Shown: positions 3,227 through 35,099 of the stretch, in pieces
Layout: every line of letters begins with the position of its first letter
Numbering within the stretch: position 1 is the stretch's first letter
The notes under the pieces: model-generated
Told to the model about the DNA's origin: nothing
Databases searched by the model: none
What the model saw: the letters and a program-made list of their open reading frames with translations, nothing else
Program-made: the position numbers and the translations under genes
Origin: a virus
Taxonomy: Duplodnaviria > Heunggongvirae > Uroviricota > Caudoviricetes
IMG/VR virus record: IMGVR_UViG_2651869695_000011
Direction: 5' to 3' (one strand)
DNA length: 40,258 nucleotides

Positions 3227-5971
3227 TTAACCTTTAGAAAAAACAGACAGTAACGGAAGTGTAAAAGTCGACACACCAGTATTCATCATGCAGGTTTTAC
3301 CACCTGAGTATCCAGATATGGTTTGCGAAACTGGACTTCCTGTTGTTGGGAAAATGGTGATTTCATCCCCCCCCTTCAATACTCTAACTTTGCCTGTAAC
3401 ATCAACCGATGAACTTGAAACAGACGTGAGAGATCCGTTGGTCATTGTATAAAAGTTTATAGTTCCTGTTGCTGTTCTGCTTACACCACATCCTGATTTT
3501 TGCTTCTGTTTATAGTTAAACAATACCAGCAGGCCAACAGGCATTGACTCAAGCTCAACTGCTGTAGACTGGTAGGTCTTACTGCCGTTTCTCATGTCAG
3601 GAGCCTCATCATCTGGATCAGAAAAATTATACCCAAGAGTTAAATCATTAACCGTGGCATTATTCCCTGTTATTCCTTTGACTTGATTAACACTTAACGG
3701 TATGTAATTAAACCCTGCAAAAAGCGGTGTTAACTTTTCTCTAAATAAAAGGCCTGGTGGGTATACTAACGAAGGTGTACCATCATATGTCACTGAGATA
3801 ATATTAAGTCCCTTTTTAAGGGTTCCAATGCACGTTGTTTGTTTGCCTGTAAATGATGTTAGCCCATTGCTGGCAACTTTACCTGATAGATAAGAAGAGT
3901 TCCTGATGTCATTGAGAATGACATTGAACTGGTTAACACGATCTGATGAAGTATAAGTTGGGTTATATGGCTCAAATAATGTTACAGAGATATCGCTTGT
4001 ATCACTCCATACAAAATACCGACAAATAACATTTTCATTTGAAGGCGTAATCCTTCCCCATCCACCAAGTGCATCAAGATAATCACCTCCACTTAATATC
4101 GAAATTGATGGGTAGTATCTGGTATTTGAAGGGTATCCAATACCAATAAATGAAAGTTGAGTAGTAGGGATTAGGTTCTTATTTTTTACAGCTGTATAAA
4201 CGCGCTCTTTTAATACCTCTTTTGCAGCATAAGCACCGATGTATGCATGTCCTATCGTTGATGGATGGCTCTGGTCAAAGACAGTACCGCCGTCACGTTT
4301 GGCAACATCAGATATAGAGTACGCGCCTATATCTGCATAAGCGTCAGTCGTGGCAATGGACAAATCCAAAAACTCGACCTTTGGGAAAAGGCGTTCGATA
4401 CGCTTCTTAATGGCTGACTCCAGGAAAGCCTTTGGCGCATCGTTATTGTTTACAGTAACAAAGCATATCGGACAACCATATCCCCATGATTTTCTAATCA
4501 ACTTTTCAAACTCATGAAAATACGCTTCAAATCCTATTGTTGGAAGTATTCCATTGTCATTAAAACCAAGGCTTATAAAAAGAACATCAGGAGCTTTTTT
4601 TCCATACGCAGCATTCTGGAAAAATCCATAGTCGAAGTTTTCATAACCCCAACCTGTCGCAAGTGACTTGCCAGACGATCCGCAGTTATATGCTTTAAAA
4701 ATATTATCCGTGCTGTCGGATAGCATATTGAGGCAATCAGTAAAAATTCTGAACCATGAATGCTTACCGCCATTTAAATTATGATTGTAGTTGGTAGAGT
4801 TAAGATTTCCATCGCTACCAGTCGGGTTCGGGGTCCATCCTGAACTATAGGCTCCATCCGTTATAGAATCACCAATGATACCTACATGGCAATCTTCTAT
4901 AGTTGATTGGTAACTCTGCTTATTTGCAAATTTAGCAATTGTTCCAAGAGCAGTAAAATCAGGGCCATTGTTAGATAGCCCAACATCAAAAACATGCTCA
5001 TTACCCCATTTGTCTCTTGTGAGAATTTTACCTTCTCCAAGAAATTTAGTCACATCATCTGACGGTAAAAAATTACACCTGATGGTTACATCTTTTGGGA
5101 TGTAAATCTGACCAGGGAAAGCATAAATTGCACTTCTGTTGTCAGTTGTCGTGTTAATAACGACATTTGGAACATAAAATATTGACGTTGCGTCAGTTCT
5201 ATATTGTCCGTTAACAAGCTCAGATCTGAGAACCGCATCCCCAACACCTCTCCAAGCGCCAGGACCAACACCACCAGTAGTGGTAGGAGTTGATCCTGGA
5301 GGAACTACTTTGGGCAGTGGCCCGTCCCATCTGTAGTATTCGCCGTTGCTTTCCCAGAGAAGAACATCGTTAAGATAGATGATGGTATTACCCAACTCAA
5401 AAGATTTCTTCGTGTTATAGCCATACAATCCATTTTCTAAGGTTTCAATAATGGTGCTAAGTATGGTACTAAATTTTGCATAAAGATCATCAGTATATTT
5501 TTTTGTAGCAGCATCTTGGGGAAGAGATGGATCACGAAGATTTCTAATATAATTTGAAAGCGCGTCATAAAAAATTGCTACGTCATTTGGCTTTCTTAAA
5601 GCCAACTTATCATTTCTTAATGATTGTTGAATGAGCATAGTAAGTTTATCAAACGCATCCTCATGTACCTCAGCGAAGAACTTACCCTGATTACGTAAAT
5701 CCGTTTCCTGAGTAGCTGGTAGTTCTCGTGATATAGATATCTGATGACCGTTAGCCAACGCCTTCGAGAGAATTACATTACCGCCGTTATATCCTCCAGC
5801 CCCGGTAACTGTGTAATCAGTATCAAGAGCCAGCACAGCGATATTTTCGTCAAGGTCAACCACCTGTACTACCAGATCAGATTTATTGAAAACCCTAAAG
5901 GTGTACGGAAATGATGTCGTAACGCCGTTACCTGTGTATTCGTTGTGGTCAACTTCGGTTGAGACCGTCAT
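3227..5971 (-). CDS. Tailspike/tail fibre: T7 gp17-like N-terminal adaptor + SGNH (GDSL) esterase domain + C-terminal beta-rich domain
   Basis: N-terminus YTGNGVTTSFPYTF...DLVV...DYTVTG resembles podovirus fibre head-binding domain; SGNH blocks GIIGDSITDG (block I), ISLGFNDN (block III), DQSHPSTIGH (block V); SD GGAG 8 nt upstream; AT-rich body. Confidence 0.8.
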   Translation of the reverse strand: MTVSTEVDHNEYTGNGVTTSFPYTFRVFNKSDLVVQVVDLDENIAVLALDTDYTVTGAGGYNGGNVILSKALANGHQISISRELPATQETDLRNQGKFFAEVHEDAFDKLTMLIQQSLRNDKLALRKPNDVAIFYDALSNYIRNLRDPSLPQDAATKKYTDDLYAKFSTILSTIIETLENGLYGYNTKKSFELGNTIIYLNDVLLWESNGEYYRWDGPLPKVVPPGSTPTTTGGVGPGAWRGVGDAVLRSELVNGQYRTDATSIFYVPNVVINTTTDNRSAIYAFPGQIYIPKDVTIRCNFLPSDDVTKFLGEGKILTRDKWGNEHVFDVGLSNNGPDFTALGTIAKFANKQSYQSTIEDCHVGIIGDSITDGAYSSGWTPNPTGSDGNLNSTNYNHNLNGGKHSWFRIFTDCLNMLSDSTDNIFKAYNCGSSGKSLATGWGYENFDYGFFQNAAYGKKAPDVLFISLGFNDNGILPTIGFEAYFHEFEKLIRKSWGYGCPICFVTVNNNDAPKAFLESAIKKRIERLFPKVEFLDLSIATTDAYADIGAYSISDVAKRDGGTVFDQSHPSTIGHAYIGAYAAKEVLKERVYTAVKNKNLIPTTQLSFIGIGYPSNTRYYPSISILSGGDYLDALGGWGRITPSNENVICRYFVWSDTSDISVTLFEPYNPTYTSSDRVNQFNVILNDIRNSSYLSGKVASNGLTSFTGKQTTCIGTLKKGLNIISVTYDGTPSLVYPPGLLFREKLTPLFAGFNYIPLSVNQVKGITGNNATVNDLTLGYNFSDPDDEAPDMRNGSKTYQSTAVELESMPVGLLVLFNYKQKQKSGCGVSRTATGTINFYTMTNGSLTSVSSSSVDVTGKVRVLKGGDEITIFPTTGSPVSQTISGYSGGKTCMMNTGVSTFTLPLLSVFSKG

Positions 5972-6024: not shown

Positions 6025-6090
6025 ATTACCTAAAAAACCACATATGGATAGATAACCCATAAATACGAACAGATATTACCTTTCAGGTAA
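6025..6090. promoter_or_regulatory. Bipartite upstream element of the tailspike operon: ATTACC-TAAAAAACCACATATG plus palindrome TTACCTTTCAGGTAA
   Basis: Perfect 6+3+6 palindrome at 6076-6090; AACCACATATG at 6036-6046; same arrangement recurs upstream of portal and early-gene operons. Confidence 0.45.
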
Positions 6091-6129: not shown

Positions 6130-6145
6130 CTGTATAAATATACAG
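6130..6145 (+). promoter_or_regulatory. LexA (SOS) box
   Basis: CTGTATAAATATACAG matches CTGT-N8-ACAG with AT-rich core (consensus TACTGTATATATATACAGTA); 8 nt upstream of SD GGAG and ATG at 6167. Confidence 0.7.
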
Positions 6146-6166: not shown

Positions 6167-6424
6167 ATGCAGCAGTATCACTATCCACTGGAAGACGGAT
6201 TTACCGAAAGGATTCACACGCCGGGAGGCGTCAGGTCACTGGTGGAGGGATCGCACTTGATGAAATTACTCCGGGATCTCGATAAGGATGGATTTAATGT
6301 CGATGGCCCACTTGCCGAACTGACTGCACTGATTAACTACGTCACCAGCTCACAGATGTCTATGCGGGATCTGCAAACACATCTCGACTATTGTGCCGAA
6401 CAATTACGAAAACAAACCAGATAA
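6167..6424 (+). CDS. Small antirepressor-like protein (stand-alone paralogue of the Bro-N protein C-terminal domain), LexA-controlled
   Basis: 85 aa; SD GGAG at 6154-6157; aligns with last ~70 aa of the 6740-7450 product (shared IH.P.GV..L.E.S.LM.LL..L..DG..V.G..AELT...Y......RD.QTH..Y). Upstream GTG 6101 extension rejected. Confidence 0.5.
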   Translation: MQQYHYPLEDGFTERIHTPGGVRSLVEGSHLMKLLRDLDKDGFNVDGPLAELTALINYVTSSQMSMRDLQTHLDYCAEQLRKQTR

Positions 6425-6560
6425 GATTTGAAATTACCAAGAGGAGTGCTTATATTTACCTTTGCGGTAAATTTACATCGCACTCCTCTTGTGCCATAGT
6501 AATCGGGCACTGGCAAAATCCAGTGCCGGGATTGGCGTCCCGAGTTACTAAGTGGCGCAT

Positions 6561-6583
6561 ACCACGCCAGACGTGGTTTTTTT
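6561..6583 (+). terminator. Rho-independent terminator
   Basis: ACCACG-CCAGA-CGTGGT hairpin followed by TTTTTTT. Confidence 0.55.
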
Positions 6584-6739
6584 ATGCGTTAAGCACAGCC
6601 ATATCCGAATTATGGTGGGCTGGGCAGGGGTCCGAAAGGACGCCGGTACCACTTAGGCCGGTACGCCAACCTTGTCCAGTTCACCACCAGTAATTGGCGT
6701 TGCGGTGGTGATTAAAATCACTAAGTGGAGATAACCACC

Positions 6740-7450
6740 ATGGCTAATGCTCAAACTGCCATCTTCAAATTTGAATCTGTTAACCCTATCCGTTCCATCA
6801 TTATCGATGGCCAACCATGGTTTGTAGCCCAAGACGTTTGTAGTGCGCTGCGTATCCAAAACGTCACCCAAGCACTTGAAAAACTGGATGATGATGAAAG
6901 GTCTATGTTCAACATAGGGCATGAACATCGTGCAATTTTTGACAGCCGAGTAAAAGAGATCAACATCATCTCCGAGTCAGGCCTCTACACACTGATCCTC
7001 CGCTGCCGCGATGCGGTGACACCAGGCACTATCCCCTACCGCTTTCGTAAATGGGTTACAGGTGAGGTTCTTCCTCAGATCCGCCGCACCGGAAGTTACA
7101 TTAAAAACTCGCTCCCGCAGGAAGAACGCATAAAGATGGTTGCCGACCAGGTAGCCAACGCCACAGCATCAGCAGTGATGCAGGCAATGAAGATAGAGAA
7201 CAAAACCTACAGTGCCCCACTGAAGCCCGGCTACCGCAGTCTGATTCATTCTCCGTCTGGTGTTCTCGGCCTGACGGAGAACTCACTGCTGATGAATTTG
7301 CTGAACCAGTTGCAGGAAGACGGGCACGATGTATCGGGCGCGGCGGCGGAGCTGACCACCATGTTTTGCTACATCGTTGGTGTGAGCAAATGCCTGCGTG
7401 ATATCCAGACTCACGCGGAGTACATCAACGACAAGGCTGGGTTCTTCTGA
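6740..7450 (+). CDS. Bro-N domain antirepressor-family protein
   Basis: Classical Bro-N signature (FKFESVNPIRSIIIDGQPWFVAQDVCSAL...LDDDE...ISESGLYTLIL...FRKWVTGEVLPQIRRTG); SD GGAG 9 nt upstream of ATG 6740; C-terminal domain paralogous to 6167-6424. Confidence 0.75.
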   Translation: MANAQTAIFKFESVNPIRSIIIDGQPWFVAQDVCSALRIQNVTQALEKLDDDERSMFNIGHEHRAIFDSRVKEINIISESGLYTLILRCRDAVTPGTIPYRFRKWVTGEVLPQIRRTGSYIKNSLPQEERIKMVADQVANATASAVMQAMKIENKTYSAPLKPGYRSLIHSPSGVLGLTENSLLMNLLNQLQEDGHDVSGAAAELTTMFCYIVGVSKCLRDIQTHAEYINDKAGFF

Positions 7451-7597
7451 CGGGCGGCGGCACAGGGATGTGCCTTTAAATAATTCTGTACAGATTGCAG
7501 ACTGTGGGTGAATAGCGTACTATTACCTCAAGGGTAAACGGATTGGTTTCATTTTTATTAATCCGTGTAATGAACTTATGAGATATGAGGTAATGTC

Positions 7598-7777
7598 ATG
7601 CGAAACGAAAAATTGCAGATGCGTAGAGCGCAAGCTGCCGCAAGACGTTCTTTCAATGGAAGCGTAGAGTACGTAAAAGTTACTATGACAAAAGATCACG
7701 CAAGTCGCGTATCCCGAGCTTTCTTTGATTCTCGTAACAATAAGGAAAATTATGAGTTCGTCTGCGTCGCAGAATGA
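7598..7777 (+). CDS. Small basic protein (59 aa), possible DNA-binding or antitoxin-like partner
   Basis: Not in ORF track (below size cutoff); good SD TGAGGTAA 6 nt upstream of ATG; Arg-rich N-terminus; 3' end overlaps start of next gene in a different frame. Confidence 0.3.
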   Translation: MRNEKLQMRRAQAAARRSFNGSVEYVKVTMTKDHASRVSRAFFDSRNNKENYEFVCVAE

Positions 7778-8297
7778 TAAAAATCAAATTGTCAGATATA
7801 AGGGTCGAGTATTGCATACGCAAAATTTCTCGGCCCTTTGTGCATCTGATCTTGAGCTGAAGAAAGTATCTGATGCCTTTACCCAGTATTGGAAAACGGG
7901 ATACCATCCATCTCTTGGTAAAGATGCTGCATTTGCTCGTCCGACAGAAATGCTTAAACTAAATGTCAGGCATACTCATGTCGATAACCAAGACTATATT
8001 CCAGAAGATAGTGATAAAAAACACACTGGTAAAAAATCATCTTGGGATGCATGGAAAAATATAGCGTCTGTGCAAGTAAAATGCATACCAACAAGTGATT
8101 GCTTTTTAGTTTATTCGGTAAATCACAATCGTGATGCGCTGGTTATGTTTTTTGTTGACGCAGATGCCCACAACATAACTGAGCAAGAAGAGTTTAAAGA
8201 GGAAGCAATCACTATCAGTTATCAATTCTTTGAGAAAACAAAAACAGAACCAATGCCTTTAGAAGAAGATCTTTTTTCTGATAAATGGAAGGAATAA
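7752..8297 (+). CDS. Hypothetical moron protein (181 aa), no family recognised
   Basis: SD AAGGA 7 nt upstream of ATG 7752; AT-rich codon usage unlike neighbouring virion genes; followed by a strong terminator. Confidence 0.5.
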   Translation: MSSSASQNDKNQIVRYKGRVLHTQNFSALCASDLELKKVSDAFTQYWKTGYHPSLGKDAAFARPTEMLKLNVRHTHVDNQDYIPEDSDKKHTGKKSSWDAWKNIASVQVKCIPTSDCFLVYSVNHNRDALVMFFVDADAHNITEQEEFKEEAITISYQFFEKTKTEPMPLEEDLFSDKWKE

Positions 8298-25436: not shown

Positions 25437-25513
25437 GTGGCATTAGCTCAGTTGGACAGAGCAACCGCCTTCTAAGCGGTTGGTCGCAGGTTCGAATCCT
25501 GCATGCCGCGCCA
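25437..25513 (+). tRNA. tRNA-Arg (anticodon UCU)
   Basis: Cloverleaf by hand: acceptor GTGGCAT/ATGCCGC (one U-G pair), D-arm GCTC-AGTTGGACA-GAGC, anticodon arm ACCGC-CTTCTAA-GCGGT, T-arm GCAGG-TTCGAAT-CCTGC, discriminator G, encoded CCA; close to enterobacterial argU. Confidence 0.85.
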
Positions 25514-34514: not shown

Positions 34515-35099
34515 ATGAAAAGTATCCAGGACGTCCGCAGGCAAAATCTCAACGACTTGATCGACCGTGAATTCAATGGTGTTCAGACGCGGATGGCAGA
34601 AAAACTTGGAACTCAGGCAAATCTGGTAAACCGCTGGGCTCTTGGCAAGAAGGTTATCGGCGACCAGGTTGCGCGAAAAATTGAAGCTGCCGCCAATAAG
34701 CCCCGTAACTGGCTTGATATCGATCGCTCGCTTTCTCAGGAAGGTTTTCAGCCTGTCGGCCCAAGCGACATTGGTCAGCTGGCGGCCCACAACCTGGAAC
34801 GCTGGATGAGCGAAAGCCGCGACCTTTCAACACAGGGAAAACTTCACCGCGCATCCGGAGTCGCCCAGGTGACAATCAGCCGCCTGTTAAACAATGAGGT
34901 CAGCGTTTCCATTTCCACCCTGGAGAATGTTGCATCTGCATTCGGGCGTCACGGATATGAACTACTGATTCACCCGCACGACCCTGCAACTATCAACTAT
35001 GACCGCTCGCGCTACGCATTGTTACCTGAAACCGAGAAAGCAAAGATCGAAAGTTACATTGAATTTGTCATCAACCAGAACGAAAAAAACAAACAATAA
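34515..35099 (+). CDS. Prophage repressor, two HTH-like segments, no recognisable S24 peptidase/autocleavage domain
   Basis: HTH-like segments at about residues 20-65 and 110-155; no Ala-Gly/Ser-Lys LexA-like C-domain; no SD within 12 nt of ATG (possibly leaderless). Confidence 0.6.
   Translation: MKSIQDVRRQNLNDLIDREFNGVQTRMAEKLGTQANLVNRWALGKKVIGDQVARKIEAAANKPRNWLDIDRSLSQEGFQPVGPSDIGQLAAHNLERWMSESRDLSTQGKLHRASGVAQVTISRLLNNEVSVSISTLENVASAFGRHGYELLIHPHDPATINYDRSRYALLPETEKAKIESYIEFVINQNEKNKQ

Follow-up and report, generated by a model that had tools for sequence, protein, structure and literature searches.

The spacer at positions 6425-6739 of the window (the whole stretch of 40,258 nucleotides that was analysed, IMG/VR record IMGVR_UViG_2651869695_000011) is very probably the RNA control region of a P1-type immI antirepressor cassette in a phiV10/epsilon15-like prophage. 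An earlier note on this DNA suggested that the spacer may encode a small RNA; it carries two, IsrK and C4, each of which belongs to a curated Rfam family, and they precede the gene of a Bro-N antirepressor, ant. The family membership and anatomy of these RNAs, as well as the covariation of their pairings and stems, are observed directly in the sequences: the three-way complementarities of C4, IsrK and the ant leader co-vary, which is the specificity-loop pattern of P1/P7 at a large scale.

The spacer is a genuine, functional-looking and ordinary member of already known families. The regulatory principle dates from the P1/P7 work of 1990, and the study of IsrK in Gifsy-1 has extended it, so no new question is opened here; the value of the result lies in annotation rather than in discovery.

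Setting of the spacer and its RNA families

The window represents an E. coli prophage of the phiV10/epsilon15-like kind (Uetakevirus). Over the 1.5 kb around the spacer, its identity to the Escherichia phages HEMP4, TL-2011b, vB_EcoP_ZX5 and phiV10, of the genus Uetakevirus, is 92-98%. In the phiV10 record the spacer is annotated with a 'terminator' and a misc_feature only, and in the ZX5 record a 37-aa 'ash family protein' CDS is drawn over it. The features of the locus are the following.

3227-5971, minus strand: tailspike gene, at the flank of the locus
6130-6145, plus strand: LexA box CTGT-N8-ACAG (CTGTATAAATATACAG) in the promoter region of the 85-aa gene, the SOS input
6167-6424, plus strand: 85-aa ORF, stand-alone paralogue of the Ant C-terminal domain (phrog_450)
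6506-6513/6520-6527, plus strand: IsrK hairpin 1, with compensatory changes in 6 of 7 pairs
6507-6583, plus strand: IsrK small RNA (RF01394, 67.2 bits against a gathering threshold of 50, full length 1-77)
6532-6538, plus strand: a1 site UUGGCGU, in the loop of IsrK hairpin 2
6548-6555, plus strand: b1 site CUAAGUGG
6608-6691, plus strand: C4-type antisense RNA (RF01695, 66.0 bits against a gathering threshold of 45, E = 8.6e-11, full length 1-87)
6649-6656, plus strand: b' CCACUUAG, in the loop of C4 hairpin 2
6663-6669, plus strand: a' ACGCCAA, in the C4 junction strand
6681-6711, plus strand: alternative hairpin between the 3' strand of the C4 closing stem (6681-6688) and GGUGGUGA (6704-6711), with a2 in its loop
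6694-6700, plus strand: a2 target UUGGCGU in the ant leader, complementary to a'
6721-6728, plus strand: b2 target CUAAGUGG, overlapping the ant Shine-Dalgarno GGAG (6727-6730), 9 nt before the ATG at 6740
6740-7450, plus strand: ant, Bro-N antirepressor of 236 aa, the regulated gene (Pfam Bro-N, 9.6e-20; phrog_130 anti-repressor Ant, 8e-57)

The flanking genes had been described as two antirepressor genes. This is fair, with the qualification that the first gene holds just the C-terminal module of Ant: the 85-aa ORF is 43% identical, over 74 aa, to Ant residues 155-228, i.e. to the C-terminal ~80 aa of Ant. Both proteins hit phrog_450, and the anti-repressor phrog_1760 is matched weakly. The sole good LexA box (CTGTAT..ATACAG) within the window is that at 6130-6145, and the 85-aa product is presumed to be a small SOS-induced antirepressor. 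One effector domain is thereby seen in a short version (the SOS-box gene) and a long version (Ant), each under a different control. Overexpression of ZX5 ORF4, which is annotated as a Bro-N anti-repressor and is the positional counterpart of ant, lowers lysogeny (PMC9782041).

The spacer had also been called highly structured, and this is borne out. Its 321-nt RNA folds at -137.3 kcal/mol as compared with -97.1 +/- 6.2 kcal/mol for dinucleotide shuffles (z = -6.5), and none of 100 such shuffles folds as well. The second of the hairpins noted earlier is present, with 8 perfect pairs instead of 10 (GGCACTGG 6506-6513 / CCAGTGCC 6520-6527), G6505 and G6528 being unpaired. The terminator at 6561-6583, i.e. 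ACCACG-CCAGA-CGTGGT (stem 6561-6577) and a T7 run, was recovered by an independent scan. The two overlapping ORFs are likewise present, at 6391-6693 (100 aa) and 6552-6656 (34 aa), and have no family match in Pfam or NCBIfam. The largest structure in the spacer, the 84-nt C4 fold at 6608-6691, was absent from the earlier note, as were the complementarities that link the parts of the spacer.

The whole window was searched against Rfam at gathering thresholds, and a permissive search was added. Three hits in the window reach the gathering level, a tRNA-Arg, isrK (RF01394) and the C4 antisense RNA (RF01695). IsrK has the three hairpins of the isrK model, the last of which is the intrinsic terminator, and it is equivalent to a c4-a1b1 element plus a terminator. 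The c4-a1b1 motif, catalogued in 2010 together with c4 (Weinberg et al. 2010, PMC2864571), corresponds to the two 5' hairpins of IsrK including the a1 loop, but its model stops short of the terminator hairpin, which is part of the isrK model. In the permissive search c4-a1b1 (RF03163, 'a1, b1 targets of C4 antisense RNA') gave a full-length match (1-53) at 6494-6546, scoring 44.3 bits where the gathering score is 46.7 (E = 7.8e-10). This match overlies the 5' half of isrK, and VT2-Sakai (50.5) and P1 (51.0) exceed the gathering score.

The C4 fold consists of a long closing stem around two hairpins. Mature C4 is predicted to extend from ~6614 to 6688 (~75 nt) by analogy with P1, as its 5' GGUGGG and 3' CACC align with the annotated ends of P1 C4. 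In sequence a1 equals a2 and b1 equals b2, and the two pairs of sites are exactly complementary to a' and b', respectively. A search for other C4 targets found the 8-mer of the b site at b1 and b2 only within the prophage. In the minimum-energy fold of the whole spacer a1:a' and b1:b' are paired in cis, and this fold is the equivalent of 'structure A' of Gifsy-1. Prediction of whole-RNA duplexes between C4 and IsrK or the leader unfolds both RNAs and is uninformative; a segment-level analysis was used. No ORF was found between the end of C4 (6691) and the ATG of ant (6740).

Comparative evidence across homologous cassettes

A pattern derived from IsrK yielded 120 IMG/VR stretches, which together with the phage loci represent 103 distinct cassettes. 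The phage loci that were fetched are from Escherichia, Klebsiella, Enterobacter, Hafnia and Yersinia phages and from the Stx phage VT2-Sakai; isrK and C4 are found in tandem in all seven of them, each time with an antirepressor-like gene directly behind the pair. The variable triplet of the a site agrees between a1, a' and a2 in 99 of the 103 unique loci, and six alleles occur (CGT, TCT, AAC, AAG, CCT and CAT). The b' loop has 51 distinct sequences among the 103 cassettes. Its longest helix with its own b1 and b2 has a median length of 8 and 9 nt, respectively; against targets taken from loci whose loops are unrelated, the mean lengths are 4.5 and 5.8 nt. Overlap between b2 and the Shine-Dalgarno is seen in the window and in most homologues. 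The earlier note had proposed covariation in homologues as a check on the stems. IsrK hairpin 1 and the C4 stems do covary, with compensatory double changes in 21 of 24 pairs of C4 (89 distinct sequences), but the first stem of the spacer, a 12-bp inverted repeat, is not maintained as a helix. The 51 loop variants and 6 junction variants look like a large, mutually orthogonal RNA specificity set, and such orthogonal specificities might be of use in heteroimmunity studies or as synthetic-biology parts.

The alternative helix 6681-6688/6704-6711 has a median of 8 bp in 102 loci, and compensatory variants are found, e.g. TCGCCACC/GGTGGCGA and GCTACCACC/GGTGGTAGC. This helix and the C4 fold are mutually exclusive, i.e. 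it is a competitor of the C4 closing stem and not of the terminator.

There are a few deviating cassettes. In three IMG/VR loci (L085, L119 and L030) either a1 in IsrK or a2 in the leader is mismatched to the C4 allele. These mosaic cassettes look like recombinants between specificity types, in which the mimic or the target would be expected to lose its pairing with C4. In other loci (e.g. L025, L033, L034, L082, L087 and L110), ~50 nt containing GGTTATAATCC are inserted behind the IsrK terminator and ahead of C4. The insertion may be a separate C4 promoter; it is absent in the window.

Relatives of the spacer occur in 245 phage records, of which ~150 are Stx phages, and in 457 of 5426 complete E. 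coli genomes (~8%). Among the matches listed, only hypothetical or Bro-N proteins are named, and some phage records show an 'Ash family protein' or a lone terminator. The RNAs of the cassette are mostly unannotated and overlooked. The cassette is predicted to be a second immunity layer that sets prophage inducibility.

Promoter-like sites, candidate operator and inverted repeat

The part of the spacer that precedes IsrK contains the first stem of the earlier note. This stem had been given as a perfect one of 11 bp; it exists, and its length is 12 bp (CAAGAGGAGTGC 6438-6449 / GCACTCCTCTTG 6480-6491). Its loop does hold the sequence noted there, TTACCTTTGCGGTAA, at 6456-6470. A shuffled 40-kb window yields ~0.4 k-mer hits for perfect inverted repeats with arms of 11 bp or more and loops no longer than 40 nt. 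The relevant features are listed here.

6428-6456, plus strand: promoter-like site A, TTGAAA-17-TATATT, 10 of 12 matches, the -10 running into the operator
6438-6491, no strand assigned: 12-bp inverted repeat around the operator, with arms 6438-6449/6480-6491 in the spacers of sites A and B
6456-6470, no strand assigned: operator-like palindrome TTACC-N5-GGTAA, 8 in the window against 0.00 expected
6472-6500, plus strand: promoter-like site B, TTTACA-17-CATAGT with upstream TG, predicted start ~6507 (isrK model position 1)
6076, 6456, 7523, 25100, 28245, 32076, 32138 and 34445, no strand assigned: TTACC-N5-GGTAA sites, 15 nt each, dispersed over the prophage
34515-35099: 194-aa HTH repressor, 100% identical to the ZX5 repressor, with a TTACC-N5-GGTAA site 55 nt upstream

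The promoter-like sites come from consensus matching, in which 2 were called against 3.0 expected in shuffles. The palindrome is present upstream of isrK in 26 of the 103 unique cassettes (Uetakevirus-type), and its 5-nt centre varies. These operator-type loci have the order palindrome, aTTTACA, 17 nt, TGcCATAGT; the distance from the operator end to isrK +1 is 36 nt in 25 of 26 unique upstream sequences and 33 nt in phiV10, and cttgtgccatagt of site B is kept in all 26. As for site A, TTGnnn and TTATnT are found at a constant distance from the operator even in loci where the intervening sequence is unrelated.

From their distribution alone, the TTACC-N5-GGTAA sites are assigned to the 194-aa repressor, which probably binds them. 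Overexpression of the ZX5 repressor prevents lytic growth (PMC9782041). The operator site at 6076 precedes the LexA box by 54 nt, and LexA and the repressor may jointly control the 85-aa gene. The LexA box is kept at -377 to -380 relative to isrK +1 in 12 of 33 operator-type loci. The counterpart of the 6076 site lies at -431 to -434 from isrK +1 in most operator-type loci, including some that have no strict LexA box.

The pairing of the 12-bp repeat is kept in register (at least 10 of 12 pairs) in 8 of 25 distinct upstream regions, and in 5 loci the right arm is retained beside an unrelated left arm. In phiV10 the operator is the centre of a perfect 41-bp DNA palindrome, and this suggests symmetry at the level of DNA. 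The region of the first stem is a putative promoter/operator rather than a conserved RNA helix. The 12-bp hairpin was also considered as a terminator and rejected for either strand, as there is no U tract on the plus strand and no gene to terminate on the minus strand.

Regulation: related systems, mechanism and alternatives

In the curated record of P1 the immI order is Oc4 (the C1 operator), the tandem promoters P2c4/P1c4, a1, b1, C4, a2, b2, icd and ant1/ant2; for P1/P7 the locus is also written Oc4/Op51 - P51a/b - a1,b1 - c4 RNA - a2,b2 - icd - ant1/ant2. C4, of ~77 nt, is excised from the P1 operon transcript by RNase P. The order of the elements, putative operator and promoters included, is the same in the window, with the distal target at the ribosome binding site, and in both cases an antirepressor is regulated. 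The P1 immI stretch is matched by the same three Rfam families, and c4 of P1 itself scores 68.8 bits against RF01695, as compared with 66.0 here. Ant synthesis in P1 is repressed by c4 RNA, and the 8 candidate operator sites dispersed over the prophage here recall the 22 C1 operators of P1 (PMC8546580). The differences are also clear. Firstly, an icd-like ORF is missing here and b2 covers the Shine-Dalgarno of ant itself. Secondly, Ant is here a Bro-N protein, and an SOS-controlled paralogue of its C-terminal domain lies directly upstream. Finally, the host of the cassette is a small integrating podovirus as opposed to a plasmid prophage, and the symmetric TTACC-N5-GGTAA stands against the asymmetric 17-bp C1 operator.

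The isrK-orf45-anrP locus of Gifsy-1 in Salmonella (Hershko-Shalev et al. 2016, PMC4825925) is similar in having an RF01394 IsrK with its own promoter, a leaky terminator and an antirepressor downstream. A processed RNA complementary to IsrK lies in between, STnc1160 there and C4 here, and the central part of IsrK pairs with this region, in cis as well as in trans. A fraction of the Gifsy-1 isrK transcripts passes the terminator and gives a translationally silent ant mRNA, short IsrK activates the translation of this read-through mRNA in trans, and IsrK binds Hfq (PMC4825925). On the other hand, the region behind IsrK is read in Gifsy-1 as orf45, which is coupled to anrP, whereas no ORF spans C4 into ant here, and the AntQ consequences have no visible counterpart.

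From these features we infer promoter activity, an operator-binding protein, RNA processing and a direction of regulation. Transcription would start at one or two promoters (predicted starts ~6463 and ~6507) flanking the operator, which is presumably held by the repressor encoded at 34515-35099. The first 77 nt would be IsrK, ending at the intrinsic terminator, and the transcripts that read through the terminator would carry C4 and the ant mRNA. By analogy with P1, C4 would be cut out by RNase P. It would then pair with the ant leader, a' with a2 (6694-6700) and b' with b2 (6721-6728), and since b2 covers the Shine-Dalgarno, Ant would stay untranslated. As IsrK bears exact copies of a1/b1, it would compete in trans for C4 or, on the long transcript, in cis for the C4 segment, and a surplus of short IsrK would lift the block if the analogy with Gifsy-1 holds. 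Upon induction, DNA damage would strip LexA from the upstream promoter, and the 85-aa paralogue would be made and would inactivate the repressor. The IsrK promoter would then be derepressed, IsrK would exceed C4, and full-length Ant would be translated, reinforcing the induction. The covarying pairing of C4 to the ribosome binding site of ant and the IsrK mimic point to translational control by C4 and not to a terminator/antiterminator switch. The details may differ from P1 and Gifsy-1 because the coupling ORF of the icd/orf45 type is missing here. As a counterpoint, full repression of the promoter in lysogens would leave C4 without an evident source, and a simple sponge model fits poorly with Gifsy-1, where co-expression of the C4-like region did not counteract IsrK toxicity (PMC4825925).

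It is possible, though we hold this only tentatively, that the elements form a two-stage protein/RNA induction relay, undescribed for Uetakeviruses. LexA cleavage would yield an antirepressor consisting of the C-terminal domain only, the operator would be freed, IsrK would titrate C4, and Bro-N Ant would be made, the whole being a commitment switch with positive feedback. In the SOS read-through RNA, the operator-centred hairpin and the helix 6681-6688/6704-6711 would add gating at the RNA level.

The earlier note saw in the spacer a transcription attenuator, i.e. a terminator/antiterminator switch that decides on read-through from the LexA promoter into the Bro-N gene. One part of this stands, as an intrinsic terminator, that of IsrK (6561-6583), does lie between the two genes. 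Moreover, the stretch from the 85-aa ORF to isrK is free of terminators, as the 12-bp hairpin has no U tract, and only a fraction of transcripts passes the IsrK terminator in Gifsy-1 (PMC4825925). Gating from the LexA promoter is less well borne out: in the cassette, conserved promoter-like sites of its own (6428-6456 and 6472-6500) flank an operator, and the cassette is found in lambdoid and Stx phages without a LexA-controlled gene upstream. With the 12-bp stem unconserved, and the covarying feature being the intermolecular-type complementarity of C4 to the ant ribosome binding site rather than an antiterminator helix, we consider an attenuator distinctly unlikely. Another way in which transcription might be controlled is immunity of the P4 type, where the C4-like RNA would act on nascent a1/b1 and a2/b2 and cause premature transcription termination, the translation block being secondary. 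According to Biere et al. in 1992, C4 repression in P1 reportedly also lowers downstream transcription, which would count in favour of this reading, as would the position of a1/b1 directly upstream of the IsrK terminator. The analogy was raised by the Gifsy-1 authors, and the CI RNA of satellite phage P4 is indeed a small RNA processed from the leader of its own operon with sites up- and downstream (PMC4825925). In P4, however, seqA/seqC, premature transcription termination and replication genes are involved, whereas here the distal target overlaps the Shine-Dalgarno of an antirepressor. Such an overlap, which the window shares with most homologues, marks translational masking, and Rfam places the RNA in C4, so control of the P4 type appears rather improbable.

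The structures would be incidental if the spacer encoded small proteins of the 'Ash family' or of the orf45 kind. Homologous ORFs in ZX5 and in Hafnia phage yong2 are indeed annotated as 'Ash family protein', Pfam Phage_ASH (PF10554) matches ORFs over isrK-C4 in two loci (L005 and L006), and mutations in the orf45 start codon reduce anrP translation in Gifsy-1 (PMC4825925). However, the ORFs of the window have no family match, that of 34 aa ends within C4, and that of 100 aa crosses promoter, operator and terminator. A test for an ORF across C4 is non-discriminating in so short a region, and the spread over reading frames was used instead, together with the family searches: the spacings between the elements are evenly spread over the three frames, and substitutions track base-pairing and not codons. 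We regard a coding function as extremely unlikely. Finally, the 12-bp hairpin might itself be an RNA element, which could for instance stabilise the 3' end of the SOS-induced 85-aa mRNA or insulate IsrK so that it folds correctly in read-through transcripts. It folds at -23.4 kcal/mol, and unrelated lineages have other arms of 6-7 bp (ATGGGTT/AACCCAT, ATGCAAT/ATTGCAT and ATAGCT/AGCTAT), which by our estimate are commoner than the ~4% per lineage expected by chance. Against this, the pairing is missing in ~10 of 25 related loci, the phiV10 palindrome suggests symmetry of the DNA, and both arms would occur together only in transcripts from the LexA promoter, being excluded from the transcripts of the cassette's own promoters. 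We find such a role doubtful and prefer the promoter/operator reading of this region.

Several minor observations can be added. Phage_ASH ORFs were seen at L005 1288-1971 (Hafnia phage yong2), L006 1639-1926 (Yersinia phage vB_YpM_41) and L002 2122-2235, and the matches over isrK-C4 suggest that this protein family may partly consist of translated RNA genes. Downstream of ant and of the operator site at 7523, a 59-aa ORF (7598-7777, phrog_6685) overlaps a 181-aa ORF (7752-8297) that has a match to the Pfam YafO-toxin (8e-06); the pair may be toxin-antitoxin cargo. The prophage encodes a tRNA-Arg (anticodon UCU) at 25437-25513, the only tRNA of the window, and a tRNA is excluded as the identity of the spacer. 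In the Yersinia phage vB_YpM_41 locus (L006), a ryfA RNA (RF00126, 134.6 bits) is found at 163-461, on the opposite strand and ~1 kb upstream of the cassette.
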